This document shows, piece by piece, positions 3,401-27,572 of a DNA stretch of 33,303 nt. Source of the DNA: an archaeon (GTDB lineage: Archaea > Nanobdellota > Nanobdellia > Woesearchaeales > GW2011-AR9). The position numbers were made by a program, and so were the translations under genes. Positions within the stretch are counted from its first letter, which is position 1, and every line of letters begins with the position of its first letter. The stretch is from NCBI GenBank assembly GCA_020053615.1, contig JAGVMW010000114.1:1-33303 (forward strand). Reading direction: 5' to 3'. The notes below the pieces were generated by a model. That model was not told the DNA's origin and ran no database searches. It saw only the letters and a list, made by a program, of their open reading frames with translations.

Positions 3401-3476
3401 GGGAAATGGGGCTCTATGACGTTAAAAACCGATGGCTCGCTGTGCTCGCCCGAAAAAAGTGTCCTTGCGTCATACG
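3401..3476. repeat. Right arm of the inverted repeat flanking the AbiE/GrpB block
   Basis: GGGAAATGGGGCTC (3401-3414), CGTTAAAA (3420-3427) and AAAAAAGTGTCC (3453-3464) are reverse complements of the left-arm blocks. A GC-rich insert of about 25 nt sits between them. Confidence 0.75.
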
Positions 3477-3565
3477 CCTCCGCTCCTCGACTGCGGTCTG
3501 CGGTGCTCTGGGACGTTGCACTTTCGCTTCGCTCACCTCGTATAACAGCAACTGCGACGTTAAAC
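3477..3565 (+). repeat. Junction element J3: GC-rich block plus core GTATAAC...GTTAAAC
   Basis: ACGTTGCACTTTCGCTTCGCTCACCTCGTATAAC-AGCAACTGCGAC-GTTAAAC aligns with J2 and J4. It has the same orientation as all other junctions. Confidence 0.7.
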
Positions 3566-3800
3566 AAAATTTTCTTACTGCCTAGTAGGTTCACTTCGTT
3601 CCCGAAAATCCTTAAAGTTAGTGCCTTCGTTAAATCTGGTAAAACGGAAACTCAAACAATCACTTCGTGACTATTTCTAACATTGATTTAACGACTACAT
3701 TTCATTCGACCCAAATTTTTACTTACTTTAAACGACTGGGGGGAATTCCGTAACGATAACTAAACGAAAAACGAACCGAAAAGAGGGGGGGCGAGAAAAC
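3566..3800 (-). repeat. Inverted copy of the leader-type (S2) repeat, abutting the hsdR stop codon
   Basis: The reverse complement contains GTTTTCTCGCC (3790-3800), ACGGAATTCCCCCC (3738-3751), TTAAAGTAAGTAAAAA (3716-3731) and GGCAGTAAGAAAA (3570-3582). These are in the same order as 13712-13904. Confidence 0.75.
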
Positions 3801-6800
3801 TTATTTACTAACCCAACCTTTAGCAATTAATTCTGCTTGCTTCAAAACTGTTTCTATTGCGTTCTTTTCCTTATCTGGAGGATAACCATATCTCCTTAAA
3901 ATCTTCTTGACTTTCAAACGCATTCCTGCTTGCACGCTTTCTCTTTGAGTCCAATCTATGGTTACACTATTTCTAATCATTTCAGTTAGTTCTAATGCGA
4001 TTTTTCTAAGAGCATCATCACCTAAAACTTTAACTGCACTATCATTGACTTCAAGAGCATCGTAAAATGCAACTTCATCATCATTCATATTAAGCTCTTT
4101 GCCTCTGCCTTTCTCATCTCTGACTTTTCTTGCTAATTCAATTAACTCTTCTATAACTTGGGTAGCTTCTATACTCCTATTTGTATATTTCTTGATGGTT
4201 TTATCAAGCAAATCCATAAATGATTTAGCTTGAACCATATTTTTCTTTGACATAATTCTTATTTCATCGTTGAGCAATTTCTTCAATGCTTCAAATGCGA
4301 GATTTTTCTGAGGCATTTCCTTGACTTCTGCTAAGAAACCTTCGGATAAAATTGAGAGTTCTGGCTTTTGAATTCCTGCTGCTTCAAAAATATCTATAAT
4401 TCTATCAGAGATAACCGCTTTTGACAAAATCTGCTTAATCGCTGAATCAAATTTATCCTGTAATTCTCTCTTTGTTTCTGTTGTTTTGGTGATAGCAGAT
4501 TTTATTGCTTGAAAAAGTCCCACTTCATCCTTTATTTTCATTGCTTTATCATGCGGAACAGCTAAAGAAAACGCTTTTAGAAGAGCAGTTACTTCTCTGG
4601 CAAATCTTTCTTTTTTATCTTTTTCTTTGAGAATATGCTCCATCGCAGACGGAACAAACGACACTCTCTCCTCTGGTCTAAGTTGGAAGAATTTTTTATA
4701 ATTGAAGCCATAGAACATATCTTTTACAACTTCGTACTTTTCCATCATTAGCTTAACTGCTTGCTCTTGGTCAAAAGTCGGTTTTCCTTTTCCGCCACTT
4801 TCAGTATAATTCATTAATGCTTTTTTTAGTTCAACACCAACGCCCATATAATCAACTATCAAACCGCCTTCTTTTCCAGGATAAACTCGGTTTACTCTGG
4901 CAATTGCCTGCATTAAAGTATGCCCTTTAATCGGCTTGTCTAAATACATGGTATGAAGAGAGGGAGCATCAAAACCTGTCAAAAACATATCCCTGACAAT
5001 CATTAATTTAAGCTCATGTTTGTCATCTTTCAGGTTGTCGCCTATCTGCTTTCTTCTTTTTCTGTTTCTTATGTGCTGTTGCCATTCTTTTGGATCAGAA
5101 GCTGAACCAGTCATAACAACTTTTATGAAACCTTTATCATCGTCTTCATTATGCCATTCTGGCTTTAATCTGATTATTTCATTGTAGAGTTCTACGCAGA
5201 TTCTTCTGCTCATGCCAACAATAATTCCTTTTCCTTCTAAAACAGACAATCTCTCCTCAAAATGCTTAACTATATCTTTGGAAATTCTTGCTATTCTTCT
5301 TGGAGAACCCGCAACTTTTTCTAATCTTGCCCACTTACTTTTGAGTATGTCCTTGCATTCAATTTCTTCTCCTTCGGTTGCTTCCTCGAAATCTGTGTCT
5401 ATCTTTGGTCTTTCTTCTGGTTTTAATTCAAGTTTTGCTAATCTGCTTTCATAATAAATTCTTACAGTAGCTCCATCTTCAACTGCCTGCTCAATATCAT
5501 AAACATCAACATATTTTCCGAATACTGCTGGCGTGCTTCTATCTGATTTCTCAATCGGAGTTCCTGTAAATCCAATAAAAGAGGCATTTGGAAGAGCATC
5601 TCTTAGATATTTTGCATATCCGTACGTGATTAATGCCTTGTCTTTCTTGTCTAATATCTTCGCAGAAAAACCATATTGGCTTCTGTGAGCTTCATCAGCT
5701 ATAACTATAATATTGTCTCTTTCTGAAAGAATCGGATACGTTTCTCTGTTCTCTTCTGGGAAAAATTTTTGTATTGTGGTGAAAACAACTCCGCCAGAAG
5801 ACACTTTGAGAAGTTTTTGCAGTTCTTTTCTGTCTTCTGCCTGTGTTGGTTTTTGCCTTAGAACATCTTGGCACTTTCCAAAAGTCCCAAAAAGCTGGTC
5901 GTCTAAATCATTTCTATCAGTTAAGACTATAATTGTAGGATTGTCAAATTCTCTTATCAATTTGCCGGTATAGAAAACCATTGTCAGCGATTTTCCAGAA
6001 CCTTGCGTATGCCAGACAACTCCTGCTTTTTTATCGCCTTTTGGCTGTTCTTTAACTGATGAAAGTCCGTAAGATTCTGGGGCTTCTCTTACTTGCATAA
6101 TTGATTTTGCGCTGGCTCTTCTGGTTGATTCTATTGCTTTAATTACAGCCCAATATTGATGATAAGCAGCTACTTTCTTTTTTGTCTCTTTATCTTTCTC
6201 AAAAACAATGAAATTTCTGATAATGTCTAATATTCTTTTCTTATCGCACATTCCTCTGAGTAGGATTTCTATTTCAGTAAATCCTTTCTTTGGCTTTTCT
6301 CCGTTGATAGTTTTCCACTGCATAAACCTCTCTCTTTCAGAGGTTATTGTTCCTGCTCTTGCTTCAATTCCATCACTGATAATTAAGATTTCATTAAATC
6401 TGAATAATGATGGTAGCTGTTGCATGTACGTCTGAAATTGGTCGTAAGCTGTCCAAATATCAGCTTTTTCGTCTGCCAAATTTTTTAATTCCAAAACTAC
6501 CAATGGCAAGCCATTTATGAAAAGAATAACATCTGGTCTTCTTTCAACATTATTTTCAATAATTGTAAACTGATTAACTGCTGAAAACTCATTATTCTCA
6601 AGATTTTCAAAATCAAATAATTTTACTATGATGTGTCTTTCTTCTCCACCTTTTGAGATTGGAATACTAACGCCATCAACGAGCAGTTTATGGAAACTTT
6701 CATTGTCTGCTATTAGCTTCTGGCTTTCGCTTCTGAGAATTTGCTTTAAAGCTAACTCTCTGGCTTCTTCTGATATGCTTGGATTGATTTTTCTGAGAGC

Positions 6801-6968
6801 ATATCTTAATTTATCAACAAGAACAACATCTTTATAGTCTGATCTTAAAGCAGAGCTTCCGCCAGGCAGATATTCCTCATTGCTTCCTCTTATTATATCA
6901 TAGTCTAAAGCCTTGAGAATATTCAAAACATTCTCTTCAACGTGTTCTTCAGTTATGAGGTGTTTCAT
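3801..6968 (-). CDS. hsdR: Type I restriction enzyme R subunit
   Basis: The N-terminal PD-(D/E)xK region reads [19 protein letters not shown]. Helicase motifs are HTQGSGKS and ADEAH. The C-terminal [12 protein letters not shown] matches a DUF3387-type tail. Confidence 0.95.
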
Positions 6969-6981
6969 CTTTATTCTTCCA

Positions 6982-7338
6982 TTATACTATTTTTAGTCTC
7001 TTTGCTTCTTTAATAAATCTTTTCTGTATATCAAGAATCATAGAGGGATTTTTACTATATTTTTCATTAATTCTATTTACATCGTCTTCGTGATCCACTA
7101 TACGACCACATTGAGAGCAAATCCACTTGGGAGTGCCCATTGGAGATGAAAAAAGAGATTCGAAACTTATCTGATTGCCATTTATATCAATAATTCTTCC
7201 ATGTGGGCAAATATTCTTCAGCTGATCAAGTTTTATTTTTCTTCTGTTTTCTAAAAATTTATTTATATCAAATTTAAAGCTAAATCTAATTGCAAAAGCA
7301 GCCACAATTATTAAAATCAGTGTTTCTAAAAATGCCAT
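6982..7338 (-). CDS. Small hypothetical protein with an N-terminal TM helix and a Cys/His cluster (CPHG...CSQCG)
   Basis: The ORF is packed between hsdS and hsdR and overlaps the hsdS end by 13 nt. It has a hydrophobic N-terminus and a zinc-ribbon-like CxH...CxxC pattern. Confidence 0.45.
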
Positions 7339-8645
7339 GCTCTAACCTCAACAGGAACTCTGATTTTTCCTGATATTAATCTTGGAAGCAGGGAATCTCG
7401 GATTTGTGAGAGTATATTTTGAGTATTGATATTATCTTCACATTTAAGCATTATTTTAATGATCGAATCTTCAAATTTTGAAATAACTTCTTTACTCGGA
7501 ACTATTATGGACATATCCAATATATCGCTGGCAGATATCCTTTGGTGACTGCCACTCGTTCCCCTGGCCATCTGTACCAACTCACCTAACACGGAATGTT
7601 CTTTAAACAGAAGATATAAGTAGCAAAAAAAGGATTTATTTGGTTTGAAAACTAAAAATTCAGTTGAGCATATTGATTTTTCTTTAGCATTTATGACTGG
7701 CCAGATTCTGGGAATTCTTGGATTCAATTTAGAGAATAAGACAGACATATTAGTGACAATAAATTTGTTGCTTAATATTTCAGAACCCCTTTGATCAAAT
7801 GATGTTTTCCCGCCATCGTATGCTTCAATACTCAAGTGACTAAATATCTCTTCAGGAGAACTAACTGGATTTATTTGTTCCTTATTTTGCGTAGCAATAT
7901 TATGAATCATTCCAATTTTCCATCCTTTCGGTATCTTTCCTAACTCAGAATCAACCATTTCTCCGCCAGTAGACTTATATGGCTTTCCTTTCTCGTTTTG
8001 AAATTCAAAGTCTATAAACCATCTTTTGAAGATTGCTCGGCTTAACTCCTCCAAAACTTTATTTATCTTCTGATTAAGTTCTATTTTTAAATCTAAATCT
8101 GAGAGGATTTTAGCGATGGCAATTTGTTCAGGAAAAGAGGGGATATTGATTTCATAGCTCATAATCGAATTTTTATCTCCACGTGGCATTTTGGTTCCTT
8201 TAGAAGTCAAAACAGTAAATTCAAAAAAGTTATCTTGAGATAAATAGTAGTAAAGATATTTGTTGTTTATGCTTGATTTTTTCCTTATAACCAATACATC
8301 ATTAGAACAACCACCGGAAAATTTTGCCAACCAAAATTTCTTAAAATATGTCCTAATATTTGAGAATAAAATATCTCCTTCTCTGAATTGAGTTACCTTC
8401 CCAACTTTAGGTAATGAAGAAGCCACAGTAATCCCGCCTTTTTCAGGCAGCATATTTTCGGTTGAAATAAAATTATTCAGATTTATTTCAACAAGACTAA
8501 TCTTTTCAGTAATATATGAAGCAGTTTCTTTTAACTCTTTAACTTCCCAATCTTCAGGAATCATTCCTATTTCAGTTTGCTTCATCTTTGATGAATGCTC
8601 AGAAAACTTGTTTTCTGTTGGTTTTAATTTAGTTTGTTGTTTCAT
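7326..8645 (-). CDS. hsdS: Type I restriction enzyme specificity subunit (two target recognition domains)
   Basis: The TRD-start motif is duplicated (IPEDWEVKELKE and IPKGWKIGMIHNI). Conserved spacer helices are present (AIAKILSDLDLKIELNQK and SQIRDSLLPRLISGKI). Confidence 0.9.
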   Translation of the reverse strand: MKQQTKLKPTENKFSEHSSKMKQTEIGMIPEDWEVKELKETASYITEKISLVEINLNNFISTENMLPEKGGITVASSLPKVGKVTQFREGDILFSNIRTYFKKFWLAKFSGGCSNDVLVIRKKSSINNKYLYYYLSQDNFFEFTVLTSKGTKMPRGDKNSIMSYEINIPSFPEQIAIAKILSDLDLKIELNQKINKVLEELSRAIFKRWFIDFEFQNEKGKPYKSTGGEMVDSELGKIPKGWKIGMIHNIATQNKEQINPVSSPEEIFSHLSIEAYDGGKTSFDQRGSEILSNKFIVTNMSVLFSKLNPRIPRIWPVINAKEKSICSTEFLVFKPNKSFFCYLYLLFKEHSVLGELVQMARGTSGSHQRISASDILDMSIIVPSKEVISKFEDSIIKIMLKCEDNINTQNILSQIRDSLLPRLISGKIRVPVEVRAWHF

Positions 8646-9007
8646 TTCTTTTTTGCCTTCTTAGCCCAAAATGTAGATTTATCTCCTGCATGAAATCGTA
8701 TCTCGCCTTCTGCGACCTCATCAGGGTTAATCTTCATCCATCCGTCACCATTTGCAGAGTCGCATTCATCACTGCCCTCAAAGGTGAAATCATAAATCAA
8801 GTCCCCATCACATTTCTTAAAATCCCCATACATTGAACCTTGCACCAATCCAAAATGAAACTCCCCACTGCCTATTTGTTCTATTCTGATGAATGCCTGC
8901 ACTTCTTCATTGACATAATCATTATCCCATTCACTCATTTTTGTAATGTGCCATGTTCCAATGAAATCTTTTTTTCCTATTTTCGTTCGTTTTATTTTAG
9001 TTTTCAT
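8642..9007 (-). CDS. Hypothetical protein embedded in the Type I R-M operon
   Basis: It has 4-nt overlaps with both neighbours. I recognise no motif. Confidence 0.55.
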   Translation of the reverse strand: MKTKIKRTKIGKKDFIGTWHITKMSEWDNDYVNEEVQAFIRIEQIGSGEFHFGLVQGSMYGDFKKCDGDLIYDFTFEGSDECDSANGDGWMKINPDEVAEGEIRFHAGDKSTFWAKKAKKK

Positions 9008-10038
9008 CCTAAATCATTAAGCCTCTTTTCTATATCTTCTTTAGATGGCAGATACTTCATGAGTTCTTTAGGAAGCAATTGCGTTATTTTATATGTAGCA
9101 ACTCCAATTGGCTTTTTGGCATCGCGCAAAGCGTACTCTACTGTTGTTCTTCTCTTTTCTTTGCAGATAATAATACCTATAGAAGCATTCTCCTCATCTA
9201 ATTTAATCCGGCTATCCAATGCCGAAAGATAGAACTGCATTTTTCCGGCATATTCCGGTTTGAACTTACCCACTTTTAATTCAATAGCGACCAAACTTCT
9301 TAATTTTCGATGATATAATAACAAATCAATAAAGTATTCTTCATCATCTACTTCCATCCTATATTGGCTTCCAACGAAACAGAAATAGTTGCCCATCTCT
9401 GATAGGAAATTTTTGATTCTACTAACAAGGGCATTTTCCATTTCTTTTTCAGAGTGTTCTTCTCCCAACTCCAAAAAATCAAAAGTATACTCGTCTTTGA
9501 CCGCTAATTTAGCTTGATTTTGATATTTAACCGGAACAGTTTGGTCAAAGTTTGTTTGGTTGAGAAGATATTTTTCATAAGACTTGTTCTCAATTTGATG
9601 GATTAGGACATCTTTAGTCCAGCCAAACTTTCTGGTCATCTTAATATAAAACTCCCGCTCTAAATCATCTTTGCATTTCTCCATAATGATTATGTTTTTT
9701 ACCCAGCTTATTTCTCGCACCAATGGTGCGAGTTTTTCACTAGCTTTGTAATTTAGGTAAAAATTTCTCATTCTCCAAAGGTTTGCTGAAGAAAAACCTC
9801 CTACGCTAGGATATTCCGCTTGTAAATCTTTAGCTAAAGTTTCTACGATAGATTTACCCCAATCCTGCTTCTCAACTATTTTCTTACCAATATCCCAATA
9901 CAAACCAATGAGTTCTTTATTTACGGCTTTGAGTGCGGAATATTGGGCTTCTCTGATTCTTTGTTTTATTTCAATAAGAAAATGCCGATAATCATCTTTG
10001 GTTAGGTTTTTATTCATGATTTTACCTCCACTTCCCAA
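9004..10038 (-). CDS. DUF1016/YhcG-family PD-(D/E)xK nuclease
   Basis: The N-terminal region reads IREAQYSALKAVNKELIGLYWDIGKKIVEKQ...GFSSANLWRMRNFY. The C-terminal FIDLLLYH...VAIELKVGKF is a D...ExK nuclease core. Confidence 0.85.
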   Translation of the reverse strand: MGSGGKIMNKNLTKDDYRHFLIEIKQRIREAQYSALKAVNKELIGLYWDIGKKIVEKQDWGKSIVETLAKDLQAEYPSVGGFSSANLWRMRNFYLNYKASEKLAPLVREISWVKNIIIMEKCKDDLEREFYIKMTRKFGWTKDVLIHQIENKSYEKYLLNQTNFDQTVPVKYQNQAKLAVKDEYTFDFLELGEEHSEKEMENALVSRIKNFLSEMGNYFCFVGSQYRMEVDDEEYFIDLLLYHRKLRSLVAIELKVGKFKPEYAGKMQFYLSALDSRIKLDEENASIGIIICKEKRRTTVEYALRDAKKPIGVATYKITQLLPKELMKYLPSKEDIEKRLNDLG

Positions 10039-10041
10039 TCT

Positions 10042-10497
10042 TCAGGAATCATTCCTTTCCAGAAGCTTTTCATGGCTCTGGAATTTTTTGGCAAAATAAT
10101 CTTTTTTTGCGCAGGCTTCCCGAATTTCATCAATATGCGCTATATGTTTGTTTTCGTTAAGCCATTCATAAAATAAATATACGCTGAAAATAGTAGAAAG
10201 CAGTTCTGATACTGTGTTAAATATCCACTTATCAATGCACCACCTGAAAAAAGTCTCTAAAGTATACCTATCAATATCCTGCGGGCTTTCTTCTTCATCT
10301 ATTGCTAGATAGTCGTTAATATACAATTCTACATTGTTAAGGTGCTTTTTTATTGTTTTTTTGCTGAGGTTCTTTCGTAATAAGTACTCTTCAAATTGGT
10401 GGAGCAGTGCGATATTTTCTTTTTGAATTTTTTCGTATTTTTCCATTGTCCTACCTTCATCCCTTCTTTCCCCAGTAATATGTATTTCTCTCATCAA
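10042..10497 (-). CDS. Hypothetical protein with weak resemblance to the tyrosine-recombinase N-terminal SAM-like (core-binding) domain
   Basis: FEEYLLRKNLSKKTIKKHLNNVELYINDYL has the pattern of a core-binding domain. The true start may be the ATG at 10446 (MEKYEKIQ). Confidence 0.4.
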   Translation of the reverse strand: MMREIHITGERRDEGRTMEKYEKIQKENIALLHQFEEYLLRKNLSKKTIKKHLNNVELYINDYLAIDEEESPQDIDRYTLETFFRWCIDKWIFNTVSELLSTIFSVYLFYEWLNENKHIAHIDEIREACAKKDYFAKKFQSHEKLLERNDS

Positions 10498-10498
10498 A

Positions 10499-11989
10499 CT
10501 ACTTCCTTACACGCCCCCGATGTTTTAATCTCCCTCTCTGAATTACAACATATCCCCCGGTTTTCTTAGAGCCTACTTTTGTAATCCTTCCTTGATGTAT
10601 TAATTCTTGCAAGTAGCGCTTTAATGTTCCAAGGGGCATCTTTGTATCCTGTTCAATATCTGCCCGTTTACAGTTAGGATTTAGCTCGATAAAGTGAAAG
10701 ATTGTCTCAGATTTTATCGGCTCACTTATCGGCTCACTTATCGGCTCATTTAGTGGCTCAAATTTAGGATGAATCTTCAATCTTGTAATAAACTGGACTC
10801 TATCATCATCCGTAATAAATACTGGTGCAGGTGAACCATTATTTTGCATAGCACTTCTTATTTTCCTAAATCCGGTATTCTTTCCCTCTGTGAGCTTTAA
10901 TTCTTTTAAAAAATCACCAATTCTCCTATTTCTATACCGTTTAGAGATTACGATAGCATCATTAATATTATCTTTATTCAATGGAGGAAGAGGCCCAGGA
11001 TAACTGATTATATCAATTCGGTCAAGTTCGATTCTTACTTCAATCGGTGCGTCTATCTCATAGCTTTTATGATAAACAGCATTAACTAATGCTTCTTCAA
11101 TTGCAGTATAAGGATATGAAAAAAATCTTATTGCCTCTGCTTTAGTTGGCACTTTTATTACTTGTTCTTGTATTGCCGAATTTTTTATGTACTGTAAAGC
11201 AGAAATGATTTGATTTTGGAGGGGCCCGCTAAATCTTTCTTCTCTGAATTTATCACCGATTTTATCTTGGAATATGGTAACCTCAATCCAAGGGGTTTTA
11301 ATATATTTTTCTGGCTCATTGGAAAAAAATAATAGCCCTACGTTTTTAGGCTTCATCATTTCGTTAGGTCCTTCAATAATATTGAGGCTCTTGCAAAGCT
11401 CTTCAAAACTTAATGCTTTTGCACTTAATCCTGAATGAATATTCTGCAAATATGATTTAATCAACTCTACATTCAAGTCATTTAGCGATGCTTTCTGGTT
11501 TATTTGATCATCATAAGGGATCTGGTTAGACATTCCAATTAATTCTTTTTCTTCTTCTTTATTTGCAACAACTGTTGATGACGAATGACGAATATAGTAT
11601 TTATATTCTGATGCAACCCCAAACGATTTTGGTGCTTTGTACGGTCTTGCAGGGCCACCGGGGCAATATAAAATTATGAGGTTTTTAGAATTATATTTTG
11701 TGGGCTCAACAATGGGATAATAAGGCCATTGAATTTTGTTAGATAATTCTACTATTTTTTTCAAGATAAAATCTATCTGATTTTCGGCAATTCCAATTAT
11801 TCTTTTTTTATCGTCAACACCGATTATAATGTAGCCCCCTCCCCAATTATTAAAATCATTTGCAAAAGCACACATAGTATGAACTATTGATTCAGGATTA
11901 AACCCTTCTTTTAATTCAATTCTTTCTGATTCAATTAAATGTTCTTCAATTAATCGTTTGGCGTTTATTGGCAGCAGCATTTTATTCAT
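10499..11989 (-). CDS. AlbA_2 (Schlafen-like) + HATPase_c_4 + C-terminal wHTH protein, often annotated as a RecG-like putative DNA-binding regulator
   Basis: The AlbA_2 region reads ESERIELKEGFN...CAFANDFNNWGGGYIIIGVDD. The ATPase-like region reads EEALVNAVYHKSYE...RNRRIGDFLKELKLTEGKNTGFRKI. The C-terminal wHTH reads LGTLKRYLQELIHQGRITKVG. Confidence 0.8.
   Translation of the reverse strand: MNKMLLPINAKRLIEEHLIESERIELKEGFNPESIVHTMCAFANDFNNWGGGYIIIGVDDKKRIIGIAENQIDFILKKIVELSNKIQWPYYPIVEPTKYNSKNLIILYCPGGPARPYKAPKSFGVASEYKYYIRHSSSTVVANKEEEKELIGMSNQIPYDDQINQKASLNDLNVELIKSYLQNIHSGLSAKALSFEELCKSLNIIEGPNEMMKPKNVGLLFFSNEPEKYIKTPWIEVTIFQDKIGDKFREERFSGPLQNQIISALQYIKNSAIQEQVIKVPTKAEAIRFFSYPYTAIEEALVNAVYHKSYEIDAPIEVRIELDRIDIISYPGPLPPLNKDNINDAIVISKRYRNRRIGDFLKELKLTEGKNTGFRKIRSAMQNNGSPAPVFITDDDRVQFITRLKIHPKFEPLNEPISEPISEPIKSETIFHFIELNPNCKRADIEQDTKMPLGTLKRYLQELIHQGRITKVGSKKTGGYVVIQRGRLKHRGRVRK
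10714..10761. repeat. In-frame 12-bp tandem repeat: two perfect and two degenerate units of TTATCGGCTCAC
   Basis: Units lie at 10714-10725, 10726-10737, 10738-10749 and 10750-10761. They encode the EPISEPISEPI linker of the AlbA_2 protein. Confidence 0.85.
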
Positions 11990-11997
11990 TCCTTTTT

Positions 11998-13521
11998 TTA
12001 TATCTTAAACCCAATCCCTTCCAGATTCTTCTTTATTTCAACATCCAACTTCTGCCCTTCTTTCATCTGTTCAGATAATTCAGCAGTTAATCGTTTCATC
12101 TTCTCTTCAAATGCTTCGTCGTCTTCTACTTCTTCTTGGATTCCAACATATCTTCCAGGAGTCAGGATAAAATTATTCTTCTCAACCTCTTCCAATTTAG
12201 CGGATTTGCAAAGGCCAGTAACATCTTCATATTTGAGCTTGTTTTCTCCTCTCCATGCGTGATAAGTGGAAGATATTTTCTTAACATCCTCATCAGTTAG
12301 TTCTCTATGTCTTCGGTCAATCATCACACCCATATTTCTGGCATCAATAAACAAGATTTGCCCTCTTCTGTCCCTAAACGAATGGTCTTTTTTATCTCGT
12401 GTAACAAACCACAAGCAGGCAGGAATTCCAGTATTGTAGAATAACTGGGCAGGTAATGCTACCATGCAATCAACAATATCAGAAGTAATCATATCCTTCC
12501 TTATTTCGCCCTCATTAGAAGTATTTGATGACATTGAGCCATTTGCCAGAACAAAGCCAGCTACGCCAGTAGGATTCAAATGATGAATAAAATGCTGAAC
12601 CCAGGCAAAATTGGCATTATTTTTTGGAGGCACTCCAAACTTCCATCTTACATCTTCCTGCAATAATTCGCCATTCCAATCTGAATCATTAAACGGAGGA
12701 TTGGCAAGAATAAAATCTGCTTTCAAATCTTTATGCTGGTCATCATGGAAAGCATCGCCCCATTTGATATTTGAGTCAATCCCTCTGATAGCCATATTCA
12801 TCTTACAAAGCTTCCATGTTGTCTGGTTGCTTTCTTGTCCATAAACCGAAATGTCTTTTATTTTTCCGCCATGAGCCTCTACAAACTTTTCGGATTGAAC
12901 AAACATTCCACCTGAACCACAGCAGGGATCAAATATTCTTCCTTTGTATGGCTCTAACATCTCAGTTAATAGTTTTACAATAGAACGAGGAGTATAGAAC
13001 TGCCCGCCTTTCTTTCCTTCAGCAGAGGCAAATTCACCTAAAAAATATTCATAGACTCTTCCAAGAATGTCTTTACTACGATTCTCTTTATCACCAAGTC
13101 CAATCGTTCCGATTAAATCAATCAATTCCCCTAATCTTTGCTTGTTCAATCCTGGACGAGCATAATTCTTTGGCAAAACTCCTTTAAGTGAGGGATTGTC
13201 TCTTTCAATAATATCCATAGCTTCATCAAGAAATTTTCCAACTTCTGGCTTTTTTGCATTGGCTTGAAGATGCTCCCATCTTGCTACTTTTGGGACAAAG
13301 AAAATTCTCCGCGAAACATACTCATCAACATCTTCTGGATCTGAATCTTTCTCTTTTTTCAGTTTTTCATAAACTTCAGTAAAAGCATCAGAAATATACT
13401 TTAAGAAAATCAAACCTAAAACAACGTGCTTATATTCAGCAGCATCCATATTGCTTCTTAGCTTATCAGCAGAAGACCATAATTTTTGTTCAAACCCTAA
13501 ATTAGCACCGTTATTTGACAT
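11998..13521 (-). CDS. hsdM: Type I R-M N6-adenine DNA methyltransferase subunit
   Basis: It has motif [12 protein letters not shown], motif [10 protein letters not shown] and an HsdM N-terminal domain ([33 protein letters not shown]). Confidence 0.95.
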
Positions 13522-13663
13522 TTTCTCGCCCCCTCTTATCTAACTCTGCTTCCATGCACTTCTCAAACTGACGAGATACTATCCAGCCTTCTTTCTTGCA
13601 TATCTCTCTATACTTATCGTAAAGTTCAGAGTTTACTTTCAATGTGATGTTTTTTGTTTTCAT
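13511..13663 (-). CDS. Ribbon-helix-helix (CopG/Arc-like) small protein RHH-1, translationally coupled to hsdM
   Basis: [41 protein letters not shown] has a beta-strand plus two-helix pattern. The ATG at 13663 is preceded by GGTGGGGTGA. The track ORF (to 13693) begins at a GTG and is probably over-extended. A paralog lies at 32630-32779. Confidence 0.7.
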
Positions 13664-13711
13664 TTCACCCCACCTGATAAGAAATACTTGCACATACTTA
13701 TAAATATTACT

Positions 13712-13904
13712 GTTTTCTCGCCACTAACTACTGAATACTGAAACTCCCACCCTACCCACCCAAAGCGTCTTCTTTTTGTAAAAAGAAGCAAAAACAAAAC
13801 GGAATTCCCCCCTACGAACGACTAAACTAATGTCTGCTTCGCAGTAATTGATGTTAAAGTAAGTAAAAACTACGGCACCTATCTGATTTTCGGCAGTAAG
13901 AAAA
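13712..13904 (+). repeat. Leader-type (S2) repeat upstream of RHH-1/hsdM; the inverted partner of 3566-3800
   Basis: It contains GTTTTCTCGCC (13712-13722), ACGGAATTCCCCCC (13799-13812), TTAAAGTAAGTAAAAA (13854-13869) and GGCAGTAAGAAAA (13892-13904). In addition, 13799-13853 is near-identical to 32898-32953. Confidence 0.8.
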
Positions 13905-13934
13905 CTTCTCCGCTTTTTTTCTGCGGAAAAAAAT

Positions 13935-13984
13935 GCTCGACCCCGTTGCACTCTCGCTACGCTCGGGTCGGCTAACAGCGGAAG
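13935..13984 (+). repeat. Junction element J4, left half (GC-rich block plus CGGGTCGGCTAACAGCGGAAG), interrupted by the IS
   Basis: CCGTTGCACTCTCGCTACGCTCGGGTCGGCTAACAG aligns with J1, J3 and J9. The expected CATAY-GTTAWAY half is found only on the far side of the IS. Confidence 0.7.
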
Positions 13985-15541
13985 CCGTCCCGCAATCCCC
14001 TCCCAAAACACAATTTAAATCTTCATTCTTCTCAGAAAAAAATAAAATCCCTCATTTAACACTCCACTGCTCCTTTCATCCTCCAAATCTTCATTAAATT
14101 ATGAGCAATACAGGCCAAATTAAACTCAATCTTCACCTTTTCCTTGCCTCGAAGCAGGAATTCCCTGAATCCCAAGTTCTGCTTGATATTCCCATACACC
14201 GGCTCGACCGTAATTTTCCGCAAAGAATACACTTTCTTTGCTTCATCTGTTTTCATCTTGTCTCTCATCCTCAGCCGTTCACGGAAGTAGAACGGCACAT
14301 CTTTTTTCTTCCCTAATTTATCATTATAATAACTCAATATCTTCATGCCGTTTTTCCTCGTGTACTGAAACTTGAAGTAAAATCGATGTTTTCCGACGAT
14401 TAATTCATCTCTCTTGGCATCATACTCATACTGGTCGTGATTCAAACTTTGCTCCTTGCCGTCAAACTCTTGTGCTTGTGCACGAGAAGGCACATATAAA
14501 TCAATCTTATTTTCCTCCGCAAATTTAATGTTCCCCGCGTCACTATAACCGCAGTCAACTCCCACCTTTGTGTCATCTTTCAAAGTTATATTCTCTTTAA
14601 CATTCTTCATCTGCGGGATGAACTGGTGAACATCATGCTTGTCCTGGCAGATCTCATTGGCAATAATTATCTGATTCCTGTCGACAGTTAGCTGAGCATT
14701 GTAGCTCAGCTCGGAATGCCTTTTCTTGGTCTGCATGGCTCTGGCTTCAGGATCAGAAAGGGAGACTTTCTTCAACCCATACTTTTCCAGTTCATTTTTA
14801 GCTTGTTCAATATTCTTTTTGACCTTCTTCTTATCTTCTGCCTCATGGAATTCCCTAACTATTTTCTTAAGGTCTCTTTTGTCAATTCCAGTAAGCCCTT
14901 CTTCCCTATCGTCGAAGAGTTGGTCTTCCAGTTCATCCAGAGCTATATCTTCTTTGATCATCTTTTCGATAGCTTGGTCCAGTTTGTCCAACCCTTTCTT
15001 ATCCATATATCTCTTGCTACCAGCGTAGGCCTTTAAGGTTGTTCCATCGATGCTGATAAAGCTGAGGTCAGTAAGGTTGTGCCTGGCGGCGATTTCCACC
15101 GTTTTTTTGAATGCATCTTTGACAAATTCAGGATGTTCCATCCTGAAGCGGTTTATCGTCCTGAAATCTGGATGGACTTTCTCTGCCAGATACATGAAAA
15201 TAAAGTTTTCTCTGGTTGCCCTGGCCAATCTTCTGGAAGATCTGGTTTTGCAAAGCATCCCGTAAACCAAGATTTTCATGATAATTCTCGGGTGATAGGC
15301 AGGATGCCCTGCGCCTTCGTAGATCAAATCAAAGTCGGAGAAATCTAACTCATCAACATAGTTTTCCACTAGGAAACAGATGTGGTCTTTAGGAATGATT
15401 TCTGTTATCGACGGTGGCAGAAGCCAATTCTGGTCTTGGTAAGAATTTATGTATGCCATATTGCACCTCATTTTATTGATGATAAGATTATAACTTGTCG
15501 ACGGGAGAACTAGTATTTATATTTTGTGAATTATGGGACGG
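13985..15541 (-). mobile_element. IS element (IS1182/IS5-like) inserted into a junction element
   Basis: It encodes a single DDE transposase. The ends are imperfectly inverted: CCGTCCCGCAATCC...AAAACACAATTTAAAT at 13985 onward, and the reverse complement of 15500-15541 reads CCGTCCCATAATTC..AAAATATAAATAC. The boundaries could instead be 13992/15534 if CCGTCCC/GGGACGG belongs to the target hairpin. No clear target-site duplication was seen. Confidence 0.6.
14056..15471 (-). CDS. DDE transposase, IS1182/IS5 superfamily
   Basis: The N-terminal DUF772-type region reads HPAYHPRIIMKILVYGMLCKTRSSRRLARATRENFIFMYLA. The C-terminal region reads VEPVYGNIKQNLGFREFLLRGKEKVKIEFNLACIAHNLMKI. Confidence 0.85.
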   Translation of the reverse strand: MRCNMAYINSYQDQNWLLPPSITEIIPKDHICFLVENYVDELDFSDFDLIYEGAGHPAYHPRIIMKILVYGMLCKTRSSRRLARATRENFIFMYLAEKVHPDFRTINRFRMEHPEFVKDAFKKTVEIAARHNLTDLSFISIDGTTLKAYAGSKRYMDKKGLDKLDQAIEKMIKEDIALDELEDQLFDDREEGLTGIDKRDLKKIVREFHEAEDKKKVKKNIEQAKNELEKYGLKKVSLSDPEARAMQTKKRHSELSYNAQLTVDRNQIIIANEICQDKHDVHQFIPQMKNVKENITLKDDTKVGVDCGYSDAGNIKFAEENKIDLYVPSRAQAQEFDGKEQSLNHDQYEYDAKRDELIVGKHRFYFKFQYTRKNGMKILSYYNDKLGKKKDVPFYFRERLRMRDKMKTDEAKKVYSLRKITVEPVYGNIKQNLGFREFLLRGKEKVKIEFNLACIAHNLMKIWRMKGAVEC

Positions 15542-15565
15542 TCTGAGGGGTCCCATATGTTATAT
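15542..15565 (+). repeat. Junction element J4, right half (TCTGAGGGGTCCCATAT-GTTATAT)
   Basis: The core CATATGTTATAT at 15554-15565 completes the junction whose left half ends at 13984. Confidence 0.65.
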
Positions 15566-18098: not shown

Positions 18099-18950
18099 TC
18101 AATTCTCTTGTTTTGATTTCTTCTTTTCCAATCTTTTAACTGATTCAGCTTGCTCTACATAATTTTCAGAAGTAATAACTCTTCTGCCACTTTTTGTTTC
18201 CAAATCTCTTCTGGCTCTTCCGGCAACAGCTCCACCTTCTTGAGCAGCTTTTTTGCCCTCATCAAATCCCTCTACATTTTTATTCTTTGTAATTTCTGTT
18301 GTAGCTGCCTCACCAAGCATGGAAAAGATAAGCTCCAAGTCTGTCATGTGGTCGCGTAAATTTTCCCGTTTCAGTCCCTTTAACTCTTTGTACTCGGACG
18401 GCGTTAAACCAAAAGTCGCTTTGGATATTTCTGCGGTGAGAATTGCATATTCCCTTTCAGTCTTTATAGCTCGCTTATCCCATTCGCCGGTTAATTCATC
18501 CCTTATTGCTATCCCCCTTACCCTTCGCTCAATCCATTCATCAGAGTATCCTTTCTTTTTGTACAATTCCCTCATCCTTTTTTGAGCAAGCTCCGGGTTT
18601 TCTATCTCTTGTACTCGTTCATAGCCAACCTTTGCCAGCCATCTCTTAAATGGTTCTGCTTTCGGAGAGGGAATGGATTGAACAATCCTCAAGAGAGTTT
18701 CAGTATTGGCACAGTCCGTTTCATAAAACTTACCATCGGAAGACGGTAACTTCAGTTGTACGATTTTTTCGTACAACTCAAATCCTTCATCTTTGAGCTT
18801 AATTTTTAGATCAGACCAATATCTTCTAGGAATAGAGCTGCCAGTTAAGACTGTTACAATATCTATTATGGAGAAGAACCATTCTTCATTATGCCACAAT
18901 CTTCGTATGCCTTTTCCCTGAAAAACAATTAATGATGTTTCCGGATCCAT
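18099..18950 (-). CDS. Bro-N domain / DinD-like (DNA-damage-inducible protein D family) protein
   Basis: The N-terminal region reads FQGKGIRRLWHNEEWFFSIIDIVTVLTGS (Bro-N pattern). The C-terminal ENLRDHMTDLELIFSMLGEAATTEI resembles DinD. Confidence 0.65.
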   Translation of the reverse strand: MDPETSLIVFQGKGIRRLWHNEEWFFSIIDIVTVLTGSSIPRRYWSDLKIKLKDEGFELYEKIVQLKLPSSDGKFYETDCANTETLLRIVQSIPSPKAEPFKRWLAKVGYERVQEIENPELAQKRMRELYKKKGYSDEWIERRVRGIAIRDELTGEWDKRAIKTEREYAILTAEISKATFGLTPSEYKELKGLKRENLRDHMTDLELIFSMLGEAATTEITKNKNVEGFDEGKKAAQEGGAVAGRARRDLETKSGRRVITSENYVEQAESVKRLEKKKSKQEN

Positions 18951-19226
18951 TCTAATAGTTATTAAATAGACATTTCTTTAAATACTTTGTCCAAACCTGT
19001 CCAGTGACCAGTGGCTCTCTAAATGGAAACAACGGCTCTTAAATCCCCCTAACTTTTGTCTCTCTTCTCTCATATTCAAATAATCGAACTTTTGACGAAC
19101 TACGGTGGCACCTAAAGTCTCGGGAATGTTAAAACTTCTTCGGTTTAATGTCCTTCGGACTTAAACCTCGACCACGCTGCGCTTTCCCTACGATTTTTAT
19201 ATTCCCTTCGGTCATTAAAAATCTTC

Positions 19227-19395
19227 GGTCGGGTCGGCAAACAGGGGTTTACAGGAATTTTACTCGGCTCGTAAAATTCCCAAATGTCAATCCAGCTCTC
19301 AAAAATTTCTCAGCTCTGATTTTTGTGGGCTACCTCAAAAATCGAGGAGAAATTTTTGGAGGGATTGCCACTTCTGTAAACCCCATACGTTAAAC
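19227..19395 (+). repeat. Junction element copy A2: 166-nt structured repeat plus core CATAC-GTTAAAC
   Basis: It matches 118-283 except at 19325-19336. The closing base pair of the apical hairpin is swapped relative to copy A1 (G19325/C19336 versus C216/G227). A TTTTTATATT box at 19193-19202 lies about 25-30 nt upstream. Confidence 0.8.
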
Positions 19396-20950: not shown

Positions 20951-21000
20951 CGTTGCACTAAAATTCAATCCTAACGGAGAGTTTAACAGCGATGTTATAC
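20951..21000 (+). repeat. Junction element J7 (CGTTGCACT ... TTTAACAGCGAT-GTTATAC)
   Basis: CGTTGCACT (20951-20959) matches the S1 block of J3 and J4. AACAGCG plus GTTATAC (20985-21000) match the core. It has the same orientation as the other junctions. Confidence 0.6.
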
Positions 21001-21175
21001 TCAATATTTTAATCACCTTTTCAGGCACGCTGTCGCTTCCGTAAATCTTACGCATTGGCACCTTCGCTAAATCGGCAACGACGACAAAACGAAATTCAAT
21101 TACTTCGTAACTAAACCTAACGATGATTTAGCGGTTCACTCCATTCTCCCAAATTTTCGCTAACATAAACTAATA

Positions 21176-21238
21176 GGGGGAGTTCTAAACTTTCTGACAA
21201 CTAACTTTGACGAGGGGGGAGTTCCGTGACGACGAGAA
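21176..21238 (+). repeat. S2-type block (GGGGGAGTTCTAAAC ... GGGGGGAGTTCCGTGACGACGAGAA) next to the 3' end of the large minus-strand block
   Basis: It resembles 3738-3800 (GGGGGGAATTCCGTAACGA...GCGAGAAAAC). It is also the inverse, with one mismatch, of ACGGAATTCCCCC at 32898-32910. Confidence 0.55.
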
Positions 21239-21257
21239 TAAGTGCTTTTCAGATTGA

Positions 21258-21509
21258 CTAAATGCTTCCTTGATGCACAAGAATTACAGCACCACCAGAT
21301 ACTATAGTTCTAAGATTTCCCACCTGACGCTGGAAGATTTCACTGCCATTAAAAAATGCAGCGTGTCCGTGAGGGCTACCAATATTTGGATAACCATAGA
21401 TTACATCAGTCCTTACACCACTAGCTGAACCACGATCATTCCAATTGAACCAACCGTCGTTTGTGCGAATACTATTATTTTGGTACATATCTGAACTCTT
21501 TATGAGCAT
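21258..21509 (-). CDS. Hypothetical 83-aa Gly/Asn-rich protein
   Basis: Its start overlaps the stop of the Cas4-like gene as TAATG. I recognise no motif. Confidence 0.4.
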   Translation of the reverse strand: MLIKSSDMYQNNSIRTNDGWFNWNDRGSASGVRTDVIYGYPNIGSPHGHAAFFNGSEIFQRQVGNLRTIVSGGAVILVHQGSI

Positions 21510-22183
21510 TACTTTTTAATTATTTCGCAAGAATTCTGAACCCATTCACAAAACCCACATTCTTCAGAGGGAGCGGGAATTTCAGCTTCTAAAACTTGAA
21601 CAACTTTCTTAAAAATATTCTCGGCGTTCTTGATATTAACTTTAATCTTGATTAAATCCTTATGGAAGTCTACATCACCATTCTCATGGACTTTGCTAGG
21701 ATGGTAAAATAATAGATAAGTATAATCCTCTGTCTCATAGCCATTCTTTCGTAAGAGAAAATTGTAGATATCCATCTGGTCTTGATAATGCTCGTGCGTA
21801 TCTTCTTTTAATGGGTAGCCTCTGGTTTTATAATCTAAAACAATCAGTTTCTTTCCCTTTTGGAGCAGATTATCAATAGCTCCATGAAAGAGATTACCTT
21901 TTTTATCAGTCCATGGTATTCCTTTGAAATTGCTTCTCCAAACTTTGAGGAGTTCTTCATTGTCAAAGAGCTTTACTTCACCTTTTAATTGTTGAAGTTC
22001 TGGAGGCAATTCTCCTCTTTTCATAAAGCGGTCAAAATGTTCTTTGAGAATTTTATCCATTCCACTCGGAAGAGATGGGAAAATGGAATCTGGACGTTTA
22101 ATGTTCTTGTTTAAAGCAAGCCAGAAACATCTAGGGCAATCTTTCAGTAAGCTTAGGCTTGATGGGCTGAATTTGTAGGTCAT
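21509..22183 (-). CDS. Cas4/RecB-like PD-(D/E)xK nuclease with a Cys cluster
   Basis: Motifs are GAIDNL, VLDYKT and QDQMDIY (QxxxY). Cysteines occur at CPRC (N-terminal) and CGFCEWVQNSC (C-terminal), as in Fe-S Cas4/AddB-type nucleases. Confidence 0.75.
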   Translation of the reverse strand: MTYKFSPSSLSLLKDCPRCFWLALNKNIKRPDSIFPSLPSGMDKILKEHFDRFMKRGELPPELQQLKGEVKLFDNEELLKVWRSNFKGIPWTDKKGNLFHGAIDNLLQKGKKLIVLDYKTRGYPLKEDTHEHYQDQMDIYNFLLRKNGYETEDYTYLLFYHPSKVHENGDVDFHKDLIKIKVNIKNAENIFKKVVQVLEAEIPAPSEECGFCEWVQNSCEIIKK

Positions 22184-22184
22184 T

Positions 22185-25100
22185 TTACGAAATAAAATCT
22201 AAAGTTATTAATCTTAATTTCTTCTCATCAAACTCGTCTAAGCCTTCTTTTTCATAAACCAGCTTATCCGAAACAAAATTAGTAACATCTACAATTAGTT
22301 TTTTCCAATTTTTATGTCCTTTTCTATAATTATTCCAAACTTTTCTAATAATTTGAATCCTCTTCTTAGTTAAACTAATGTTAACTAATTTCTTTCTAGT
22401 CTCTTCCCATTGTTTTTCTAATGCATTATCTTCCGGAAAATCTAAAATGTAATCCTCTATATCTCTCTCTATTTCGATAATTAATTGGCTCAGAAACTTT
22501 TTACTTCTTTCCTTACTCCAATCCTGTTGTTTTGTATCTGCTTCTTCCTTTACTCGTATTGAATTATATGTTTCTTTAATATCTTTAAGAATATTGGTGT
22601 TAATATCATATACTTCCTCGAAAAATTTAGGAATAACTCTTTTTTCGCTCTCTTTACAAGAAATAAATTGAAGTATTTCGGTTTTGTTCTTAATTGATTT
22701 TCTCGATTCTAAATCATGCAAATACCAGAAATGGAAATCTTCTCCATATTCATAATAAAAGAAAATTCCCCTAATACTTTTTTTAATCAAACCACTATGA
22801 ATCCCATCAGGCAGGTTTTCTAATTCTTTCATTGAACTTTTCTTGAGGTAAGTTTTCAATGGCTGATAAAAAACTTCTCCTCCACCAAATACGTCAGCTT
22901 CCAATTCATCTAAAACTGAAGATTCTTTATCTTTTATCCTCCTGATTACTCCAAAAACTTTAGGATGGATTTTTTCACCCAAAACAGTCTGATCTAATCC
23001 TACTGACTTATCTATATTGATTATTTTGTTTTGAAGAATGTTAACTAATTTTAATAATTCTTCTAATTCATCTTCTGGGAAGAAATTGTAAATATATATT
23101 TTATCATATAATGAGCCAATCCTGTCAATTCTACCTGCCCGCTGAATCATTCTTGTTGGATTCCAATGCAAATCATAATTTATTAAAATTTGTGCGGTCT
23201 GTAAGTTTTGTCCTTCTGATAATACATCAGTGCTTAGAAGAATGTCTATTTCTTTGTTTTTAAATCGTTCTATAATTTTTTGTCTGTCTTTTGGTGTAAA
23301 ACTGCCAGAACCAGAGATTTTTTGAAGCTTGATGTTTTTGAATTCTTTTTGTTTAGAAAGATAATCATAAACATAATCTAAAGTATCTTTGTAATAAGTA
23401 AAAACTACAATTTGGCTTTTTTCGTGTAATTTCAATAATTTATCTTTAAATTCAAGTAATTTTGCATCTTTATCAGGAGTTAAGTTCTTTATTTTTTCTA
23501 ATATACTCCCTAATAGTTGAATATCAATTTTAATGTCTTTAAACATCTCTTCTTTATTGTAATTATTTATGTTGAATTTATCTAATTGTGCTAGTATCTC
23601 CTGTTCAATTTCTTCTGAATCTTCCTCAAAGTCTTCATCTTCGGCAAGTATATATTTTATTAGTTTAGTATAAGCTTGTTTAGATAAGAATTTTCCTTCT
23701 TCTAAACAATTCATCATTGTCTTTAAGAACTTGATATGACGACTAACGCTAATCCTGAATGCCTCAATACTGCTTTCTAGTCTTTTTAGAAGAATTGTTT
23801 TGAAAATACCGCCTATGGCAATCATACGATTTAAAGCCAAGATTTCTTCTTGCGTTTGCAAATTTTCTTTTTTATATCTAAGAATATTATAATAAGCCAT
23901 AGTCAGCTTTTCGGATATTATGTCCGCAATTTCGCGATACATCCCTTGGTAAGTTTGATTCAGTTTGTAATTGATTGTTTCTAGCTTCCTATCTGGAAAT
24001 GTTATTTTCTGCCCATTAACTGTTGCATTAGGATACTCTTTTTTAATATAATCTCTGGTTCTTCTGATAGAAATTTCATTTAGTAAGTCGTTTAATAATG
24101 CAGGATTGCCTCTCTTATCAATTTCTTTAAAATGGACAAATAAATCAGGAATGTTCTCTTTTATGAATGTTGCATTATCATTTCCAACAAGAAGAAGAAT
24201 CTGTGAATACAAATCCCAAATAGAATTATTGATGGGTGTGGCAGTCATAAAGAGAATTTTAGGTTTTTCACCGTTTTCTTTTGTGATAAACTCAATTAAT
24301 GTGTTCATGTTCTCCCACCTGTTAGAGAGTTGATTTCTAAGATTATGGCTTTCATCAACAATTATTAATTCTACTTCTTCTAAATGCCCGCCAGTGGCAG
24401 TTTTTGCTTTATCTAAGAAGTCTTTAGAAGCTAAATTTTCTTGTGAAAGAATATTTTCAGTAAGTTGCTTATCTTTCAATGCGGGAAGCCACATTGTTTC
24501 CTTTAATTGTGCCGGACAGATAACTAAGCATCTCTTTCTTCTAAAAAAACCAAATTCTTCTAATACTTTAAGCGCAATATATGTTTTACCTAAACCAACC
24601 GAATCAGCAACCATGACTGCCCCATATTTTTTTAAACGTGAGAAGACTCTTTGAACAGCATCACTTTGAAATTCGGTTAATTCAACATTTGAAATACCAC
24701 TTTTGTCTTTCTTTTTTTCTTCTTCCTCTGATTCTGCGGCTATTTCATCTTTTTGCAGTTCATAAAGTGATTTTATATAAATTTGAAATGGAGTGTATTC
24801 TGTAGTTCCAAATCTTGAATTTTTGAGTAAAGTGATTAATTGCTCTTTAAATTCTAAAGATTCTTTCCAGAATTTATTGAACCAGTTTTCTCTACTATAT
24901 TCAACAAACATTTTACCCTGCTGAACAGTGTTATATTCTCCTTCTCTTGTAAGCCCAGCATAAGTAAAATTGGAAGAGCCACTAACCACTAATTTATCAA
25001 AAATATAAGTTTTTCCATGCAATAGGTTTTTGTCATAAATTCTGATTTCCACATTATGTTTTTCTAAAAAAGTAATTAAATCAGTAACATGGTCTTTCTT

Positions 25101-27570: not shown

Positions 27571-27572
27571 CT

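Follow-up and report, generated by a model that had tools for sequence, protein, structure and literature searches.

A Type I restriction–modification operon with inverted, matched arms in an integron-like cassette array of Woesearchaeota

The operon and its two arms

The sequence analysed here (the window, 33,303 nucleotides (nt), the whole of contig JAGVMW010000114.1, assembly GCA_020053615.1, from an archaeon of the order Woesearchaeales) contains a Type I restriction–modification (R-M) operon flanked by inverted repeats. This operon is one reverse-oriented, integron-like cassette (3566-15565) in a Woesearchaeota array, which measures ~10.4 kb plus a 1.56-kb insertion sequence (IS) inside its attC-like site and comprises nine genes with a promoter of their own. 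All genes are on the minus strand, with a first gene encoding a 50-aa ribbon–helix–helix (RHH)-like protein (13511-13663) and a cargo operon that spans 3801-13521. In the order of transcription, and with their Pfam matches, the cargo genes are hsdM (11998-13521; HsdM_N/N6_Mtase), a gene for a Schlafen-AlbA_2/HATPase_c_4 protein (10499-11989), an integrase SAM-like N-terminal fragment (10042-10497), a YhcG/DUF1016 nuclease gene (9004-10038), a 121-aa open reading frame (ORF; 8642-9007), hsdS (7326-8645; Methylase_S), a 118-aa ORF (6982-7338) and hsdR (3801-6968; HSDR_N/SWI2_SNF2/T1RH-like_C). The Type I identity proposed in a preliminary description of this DNA is borne out, since the operon has genes for all of HsdR, HsdM and HsdS; no exact match to HsdM was found in an assembly index. 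The region 13664-13711 (minus strand) is probably an archaeal promoter, judging from its letters and its conservation in related loci, with a TATA-like box at ~13697-13706 and a Shine–Dalgarno-like GGTGGGGTGA before the ATG.

Two repeats lie within the operon itself. A perfect 27-nt direct repeat (ACTTCCCAATCTTCAGGAATCATTCCT, at 8542-8568 and 10030-10056) brackets a 1488-bp stretch between hsdS and the integrase-fragment gene, in which the YhcG/DUF1016 nuclease gene and the 121-aa ORF are located and which gives the impression of an inserted or duplicated module, and a 12-nt tandem repeat (TTATCGGCTCAC, ~4 copies, 10714-10760) is found inside the Schlafen-AlbA_2 gene.

On either side of the operon lies an arm. 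The left arm (3566-3800, minus strand; the 'tail' or D-arm) is non-coding, forms the start of the cassette and lies 3' of hsdR, whose stop codon (3801) it abuts exactly as had been claimed; the right arm (13712-13908, plus strand, read outward; the 'leader' or A-arm) lies beyond the promoter. The four blocks that had been reported to recur in inverted orientation are all found at their positions, collinear when read outward on both sides: b1 (GTTTTCTCGCC, 13712-13722 and the reverse complement of 3790-3800), b2 (ACGGAATTCCCCCC, 13799-13812 and 3738-3751), b3 (TTAAAGTAAGTAAAAA, 13854-13869 and 3716-3731) and b4 (GGCAGTAAGAAAA, 13892-13904 and 3570-3582). To these can be added two further collinear blocks, GGCAC (13874-13878 and the reverse complement of 3621-3625) and ATTTTCGG (13886-13893 and 3602-3609). 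The full outward order is b1, T-runs, b2, b3, a covarying hairpin, GGCAC, ATTTTCGG and b4 on the left, and b1, a palindromic T-run hairpin (13769-13788), b2, a hairpin CTGCTTCGCAG (13834-13844), b3, GGCAC, ATTTTCGG and b4 on the right.

Such agreement is not expected by chance: 13712-13910 and the reverse complement of 3566-3800 share four identical blocks of 10 nt or more, whereas 1000 dinucleotide-preserving shuffles gave 0.095 on average and two at most, and a gapped local alignment of the two arms gives z = 6.1 (a three-way MAFFT alignment of arms proved unreliable for the left arm, hence the use of block chaining and gapped local alignment instead). The spacing between b1 and b4 is strongly unequal (38/6/133 nt in the left arm vs 76/41/22 nt in the right arm), so that the arms form an interrupted, indel-rich inverted repeat; the inverted repeats of about 200 nt described previously are real, but they are not continuous. 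Block b1, which in the right arm precedes the TATA-like box of the first gene by ~8 nt, has a longer rival partner, in that 3784-3799 pairs with 13521-13536 (16 nt, 94%), the terminal KRGRE codons of the RHH-like gene, and the motif GGGGCGAGAAAA also occurs at Shine–Dalgarno-like positions in such units. As a B recognition element, b1 could be discarded because its distance to the TATA box ranges from 8 to 50 nt between loci. Rfam at its gathering threshold gave no match, and searches for tRNA and tmRNA found none.

Cassette boundaries, attC-like sites and the array

Where the unit begins and ends can be read from related loci. These were collected by their RHH-like gene (41 genome loci and 80 metagenome loci, making 121 that were scanned for arm anchors), and nearly all are labelled Woesearchaeota or Nanoarchaeota. 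The same unit, shortened by an internal deletion of 9 kb, is present on L002, a related Woesearchaeota contig, where homology ends exactly at 3566 and 13980 (window 12953-13980 vs L002 10712-9702, 92.6%; window 3566-3988 vs L002 11094-10696, 82.6%), the flanks being unrelated and the homology beginning immediately after GTTAAAC. The sister cassettes in L015 and L017 are 99.94% identical over 9.3 kb and diverge abruptly right after ...GGATATAAC (...ATATAAC). In both of these independent comparisons the cassette boundary falls at the AAC/GTT core. Operon and arms do constitute a discrete, transferable unit bounded by co-oriented junction sites, as the preliminary description had supposed, but not one that is inserted between two cores. 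The left core is a collapsed attC-like site, GTATAAC (3540-3546), 12 nt, GTTAAAC (3559-3565), which lies outside the R-M unit, as L002 homology begins only at 3566; together with a G+C-rich CGCT-repeat region it makes up the 3' end of the preceding (GrpB) cassette (3431-3565, plus strand). The right core (13936-13979), by contrast, is part of the unit and is kept in L002. Gene(s) followed by an attC-like site of their own have the geometry of an integron-type cassette.

The R-M cassette's own attC-like site is split by the IS. The region on its operon side (13909-13984, plus strand) has a hairpin CCGC-T7-CTGCGG, a G+C-rich core GTTGCACTCTCGCTACGCTC (13945-13964) and the R'' box GGCTAAC (13970-13976), and the remainder (15542-15565, plus strand) has the R' box GTTATAT (15559-15565), which ends the cassette. 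The intervening IS1182-family element (13985-15541, minus strand; transposase 14056-15471; ends CCGTCCCGCAAT and ATTATGGGACGG) was not part of the original cassette. An element of the same family occupies the same relative position, in the same orientation, within an attC-like site of L120 (569-2131), and in both cases the flanks are ...CCTCAG(A/CC) on one side and CTTCC(G/C)CTGTTAG on the other. This suggests that it targets attC-like sites site-specifically, as bacterial IS1111-attC elements do. Segments 13985-13996 and 15530-15541, considered as attC stems, were rejected because the homologous L120 element shows them to be the IS ends.

The window as a whole is a 33.3-kb array of cassettes separated by co-oriented attC-like sites. 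The motif AYGTTAWAY occurs at seven intergenic places on the plus strand (278, 926, 3557, 15557, 19387, 20992 and 33157), each with G+C-rich CGCT repeats and ...WAACAG upstream of the match, while an eighth plus-strand match (17408), inside a methyltransferase ORF, is probably due to chance and two further matches on the minus strand are both within coding regions. Full sites are present at 128-286 and 19237-19395; these are 159 nt long, 94% identical and able to form a long hairpin (folding free energy ~-40 kcal/mol). Since the junction motif of the window, CATAYGTTAWAY, is genome-specific (outside the window it marks a unit boundary in L002 only, with isolated matches in L005, L014, L023 and L034), the search was switched to the general hairpin form. 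The form common across loci, read on the top strand, is nnnTAAC-A-(11-bp stem)...AAC-TT-(stem')-GAT-GTTAnnn, over 80-160 nt. In 13 such sites the main helix is 93% paired, with compensatory changes in 9 of its 14 pairs and a covariation score of 0.39 vs 0.145 in shuffles (none of 500 reached the observed score); the cores, TAAC...GTTA, show (almost) no variation, the two sides of the spacer measure 1 and 3 nt, and a TT bulge is conserved after the 11-bp stem. Four co-oriented attC-like sites are found in L034. In the ~10 loci where a leader-adjacent site is readable, its relative orientation does not change, which makes the RHH operons reverse-oriented cassettes; L016, in which the operon is reversed relative to the A-arm and the attC-like site, is an exception to this layout.

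In two loci (L017 9624-10424 and L005 19580-20149), an XerA/IntI-like tyrosine recombinase gene lies directly beyond the cassette tail and is transcribed away from it, with a short palindromic site between the tail end and the gene. These genes were picked up by tblastn with an IntI1 query, which served solely to find tyrosine recombinases before these were re-tested with NCBIfam. Only part of the gene is present in L005; the protein from L017 (266 aa) is without the IntI-specific extra domain and scores 204 bits with XerA_Arch (cut-off 220) and 168 bits, in two stretches, with TIGR02249 (cut-off 265).

The arms are not peculiar to the R-M operon: the same modules are found family-wide around other cargos, in a second cassette of the window and in many Woesearchaeota loci. 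The second cassette (21001-33165, ~12.2 kb) is likewise reverse-oriented, with its own RHH-like gene (32630-32785), leader (32803-32969) and tail (20985-21185) in the same two-arm layout: 13521-13900 is directly repeated at 32634-33000, upstream of this operon (83-89% identity), and 3550-3748 resembles 20985-21185, just 3' of it (E 3e-17). Among its cargo are genes for a PglX/Eco57I-like methylase (1245 aa), a PLD-SNF2 helicase (1068 aa), DUF4411 with an M78 peptidase, and a PD-(D/E)XK nuclease, which suggests a BREX- or DISARM-like system. Among the collected loci, the promoter-proximal part of the leader is kept in nearly all. The R-M tail is homologous, over ~230 nt, to tails in L002, L006, L031, L097 (89%) and L113 as well as to window 20985-21185, and tails follow RHH-led operons in L002, L005, L006, L015/17, L023, L060, L076, L086 and L097. 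Collinear inverted blocks also occur elsewhere (six in L015/17, five in L019, three in L034 and two each in L020 and L029), and in L097 (2200-3740) the same arms surround a single non-RHH gene. In the first 41 loci (~0.6 Mb), arm-type anchors were seen nowhere but in the arms of these units, and exact anchor patterns also occur elsewhere than arms in the full 1.2 Mb set; the blocks are not the generic promoter or terminator motifs that they might have turned out to be.

The tail has a structure of its own, a conserved hairpin (3628-3693, minus strand) with a 9-bp stem (3628-3636/3685-3693, CGTTAAATC/GATTTAACG) and a loop holding the conserved motif AATGTTAGA (reverse complement of 3676-3684) and an inner hairpin (3660-3670). 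Six of its nine predicted pairs show compensatory changes and eight are unbroken, the outermost being broken or gapped in two of seven tails. As to the tail driving an inward-facing gene, a convergent ORF stands beside it in L015 only and in none of six other loci checked.

A few observations concern the wider array. Besides the R-M genes and the IS1182-like transposase, the window encodes NUDIX, helix–turn–helix, GrpB, nucleotidyltransferase/HEPN pair, methyltransferase, Bro-N, GIY-YIG and Mrr proteins, together with a weak, sub-threshold AbiEii-like match. The cassette ending at 19395 has, upstream of its reverse-oriented Bro-N gene (18099-18950), a partial A-arm-like segment (ACTACGGTGGCACC..., 19090-19236) and a G+C-rich region before the attC-like site; the outer parts of L015-type leaders are 76-83% identical to this segment in L066, L074, L084 and L104, and 79% in L097. 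In L031 (130-250), a leader and an orphan tail are fused, with an apparent tRNA-like gene at a distance of ~200 nt. Finally, RHH-like genes with leaders are present on contigs assigned to bacterial metagenome-assembled genomes (MAGs), namely L003 (LCFP01000021, Gottesmanbacteria), L037 (Bacillota) and L041 (Opitutia), which may reflect mis-binning or cross-domain cassette transfer.

Matching of the outer blocks and what it may mean

The clue to the role of the arms comes from the way in which their blocks vary. Leaders always continue ...AAAACTACGGCAC and tails always ...AAAATTTGGGAG, and the 12 nt that precede these fixed contexts vary between lineages (with the forms AAAGTAAGTA, AAAGTAATAA, ACAGTTAGTG, GTCGGCA, TTCAATTGGA, GAAATGGAAATTTTA and GTGAAAATTTAA) and match within a cassette, the identity between cognate leaders and tails being 10.0/12 vs 4.9/12 for non-cognate ones. 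Blocks b2, GGCAC and b4 are likewise lineage-varying and cassette-matched. The tails of window unit WU1 and of L097a, for instance, are ~97% identical over their outer 170 nt except in b3 and b2, which in either tail agree with the leader of that same cassette. When circular junctions are simulated, -15 to -34 kcal/mol and ~50 inter-arm pairs are gained with cognate arms vs 0 to -3 kcal/mol with arms of unrelated lineages, although these fold-back energies restate the complementarity and are no independent evidence.

These findings lead us to the following picture. The A-arm separates the promoter from the attC-like site of the same cassette, and the D-arm separates the last stop codon from the crossover point at the preceding site, so that if the cassette were excised as a circle, the two arms would flank the attC-like site and form an interrupted palindrome of ~0.5 kb. 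Since the outer blocks (b3, GGCAC and b4) vary between lineages and match within cassettes, they have most likely been selected to base-pair, presumably in a single-stranded or fold-back recombination substrate, where their pairing could stabilise or present the site, or draw together the ends of a very large cassette. For the inner blocks (b1, b2, the T-runs and the T-run hairpin), the likeliest roles would be those of mirrored insulators or terminators and of operators to which the RHH-like regulator binds. That the inverted repeats represent non-coding end-modules, conserved in a family of reverse-oriented cassettes, and not transposon ends, is in our view highly probable. Taken as a whole (cassette, end-modules, pairing outer blocks, insulating and operator inner blocks), the statement is one towards which we lean slightly, and the part that makes the outer blocks function by base-pairing is put forward tentatively, with the odds somewhat against it.

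Several points weigh against this picture. Concerning the arms, (i) an L097a-type leader is a better pairing partner for the WU1 tail than the WU1 leader is (-20.8 vs -15.4 kcal/mol), which shows mosaicism and not strict matching, (ii) the b3 blocks of the second cassette are mismatched (7/16; leader ATTCATTAA, tail GTTAGCG), (iii) the blocks are unevenly spaced, b4 lying 4 nt from the core at one end and 66 nt at the other, so that any 'stem' would be very irregular, (iv) pairing between arms that are 10 kb apart needs a circular or long single-stranded form, which is only assumed, and (v) short-tract gene conversion could equally yield matching arms. Concerning the integron-like framework, (i) several sites of the window are collapsed, being reduced to R''-6..13 nt-R' (6..12 nt in those at 914-934, 3540-3565 and 20980-21000), (ii) the 1/3-nt spacer departs from that of canonical attC (5-6 nt), (iii) the neighbouring recombinase is without the IntI extra domain and below the NCBIfam cut-offs, and a catalytic tyrosine recombinase is absent from the window, (iv) integron cassettes are small and usually consist of one promoterless ORF, whereas those described here are 10-12 kb multi-gene operons with a promoter, and (v) no circular junction, excision product or empty site was observed. 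The collapsed sites look as if the interior of the palindrome had been deleted; the same form (CGCAAC/TTGC) is also present in L097.

A purely regulatory role for the arms is the alternative that fares best, although we think it unlikely. The arms would then be mirrored arrays of insulators and operators, with the RHH-like protein as a repressor that binds b2 (palindromic core GGAATTCC) and/or b1 at both ends and with T-runs and hairpins that block transcription into and out of a toxic operon, the symmetry arising from the same need at both borders. RHH regulators of the Arc/MetJ/CopG type have a beta-alpha-alpha fold and dimerise via their N-terminal strand. The RHH-like protein, which has 213 homologues, all of them unannotated, has no Pfam match, its structural model has no significant Foldseek match, and the protein itself weakly matches pArc (E 0.0026) and the CopB/YbfE families (E 0.07-0.09); in the monomer modelled by AlphaFold2 (pLDDT 71), helices 12-25 and 31-47 follow an extended N-terminus, and the beta-strand KNITLKV is invariant. 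As for the sites, the b2 motif occurs 37 times vs 2.5 expected (15-fold), in mirrored orientation and in one to three copies per arm (including L019), and it is missing from the arms of the non-RHH cassette L097b, so b2 would seem from sequence a better operator candidate than the outer blocks. The T-run hairpin at 13769-13788 and the T4-T7 runs that follow the stop codon in tails likewise agree with a barrier to transcription. What regulation leaves unexplained is the lineage-specific matching of b3, GGCAC and b4 between arms. Because the RHH-like protein is nearly identical across classes and matched arms also surround a cassette without it, the outer blocks are a feature of the cassette and not RHH sites; for the same reasons, the RHH-like protein was rejected as the specificity factor for b3.

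The tail might also be the decaying, functionless relic of an inverted duplication of the leader, with the identity between arms kept up by gene conversion or inter-cassette recombination. In L016, the 3' flank of the operon is indeed a true inverted leader-type arm (88% identical to the window leader over 100 nt), mosaic tails exist, as the ~97% identity between WU1 and L097a attests, and palindrome centres can be deleted (L031 has lost its attC-like site and one copy of b4 relative to L027). Yet tails are kept over ~230 nt across diverged genomes with a covarying hairpin of their own, and blocks that change in step within stable arm-specific contexts are unlike what decay or long conversion tracts would leave, which makes this origin improbable.

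Still less probable, if by little, is a non-autonomous DNA transposon or composite element mobilised by a transposase in trans, for which the attC-like sites would be preferred targets, an idea close to the preliminary description, in which the arms were long terminal inverted repeats. The ends of elements of the Tn7 or Mu type have several ordered sub-terminal sites with a spacing that differs between the two ends, and the ordered sub-terminal blocks and unequal end spacing seen here are reminiscent of them; b4 is moreover only 4 nt from the left boundary, and the arm blocks change in concert. Against this, no direct repeat (target-site duplication) flanks the arms, neither unit encodes a transposase, the IS1182-like element has unrelated ends of its own and lineage-specific blocks would require lineage-specific transposases, none of which is encoded. 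Nor are the arms the very ends of the unit, since the right arm stops ~75 nt inside a boundary that includes the attC-like core and that, as said above, falls at AAC/GTT. Inversion of the whole operon between the arms, whether site-specific or homologous, would fit the reversed operon of L016, but it is very improbable, given that L016 is the sole such case among the 121 loci and the ~10 readable loci share one orientation, that the units lack an invertase and have matched blocks of just 11-16 bp, and that flipping a segment with its own promoter relative to the array has no obvious consequence.

Implications for large cassettes

If the arms do pair, the recombination substrate would include structure that the cassette encodes outside attC, and there would be a testable route for the exchange of large immune operons among DPANN archaea. 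Whatever the arms do, complete multi-gene defence operons behave as single cassettes in this archaeal array, and the conserved leader with its RHH-like gene may be a portable control module common to unrelated defence systems. Integron cassettes are thought to be size-limited, and their origin and handling are an open question. One can speculate, although we find it rather doubtful, that Woesearchaeota possess an integron-like system driven by an XerA-like recombinase that lacks the IntI extra domain, and that arm pairing in this system lifts the cassette size limit: co-evolving arms would pair around the attC-like site as a fold-back or panhandle, which would permit defence operons of 10-12 kb either by extending the recombination substrate or by bringing distant sites together.

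The likeness to integron cassettes and to clusters of attC sites lacking integron-integrases (CALINs) is manifold. It includes co-oriented imperfect palindromes between cassettes, with ...AAC/GTT... cores and covarying stems, boundaries at the GTT core, one cassette found in different array contexts, a tyrosine recombinase at the start of the array and transcribed away from it (here in L017 and L005), a cargo rich in toxin–antitoxin and defence genes, and reverse-oriented cassettes with their own promoter. The differences lie in the sites, with their 1/3-nt spacer, long near-perfect stem and TT bulge, and in the adjacent recombinase, which is without the IntI extra domain. Matched inverted end-modules are, to our knowledge, known in no described integron. 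In lambda-like attP, arm-type sites flank the crossover in the circle and lie at opposite ends once integrated, and the elements described here would similarly flank the crossover in a circle and end up at the two ends of the cassette; the arm-type sites of attP, however, are a shared protein-binding consensus, whereas the outer blocks vary between the cassettes of one genome.

Integrons have already been described in archaea, including Woesearchaeales MAGs with attC clusters (data S1), and the Nanoarchaeota attC that was tested is canonical, with a 5-nt spacer (Ghaly et al., 2022; PMC9668308). In bacteria, anti-phage systems occur as cassettes of sedentary chromosomal integrons, some with their own promoters (Darracq et al., 2024; bioRxiv 10.1101/2024.07.02.601686), from which the present case differs in that a full Type I R-M operon with accessory genes, as well as a 12-kb PglX/PLD-helicase operon, are each a single cassette. 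Mobile elements that insert inside attC sites are known in IS1111-attC elements and group IIC-attC introns (PMC3001079), and the IS of the window differs from IS1111-attC by belonging to a DDE IS1182-like family and by its archaeal host. In conclusion, archaeal integron-type arrays and defence cassettes were already known; what is new here is that whole defence operons are held in single cassettes of 10-12 kb, as opposed to the 'small size constraint' described for bacteria, and that these cassettes share an RHH-led leader and end in covarying arms.

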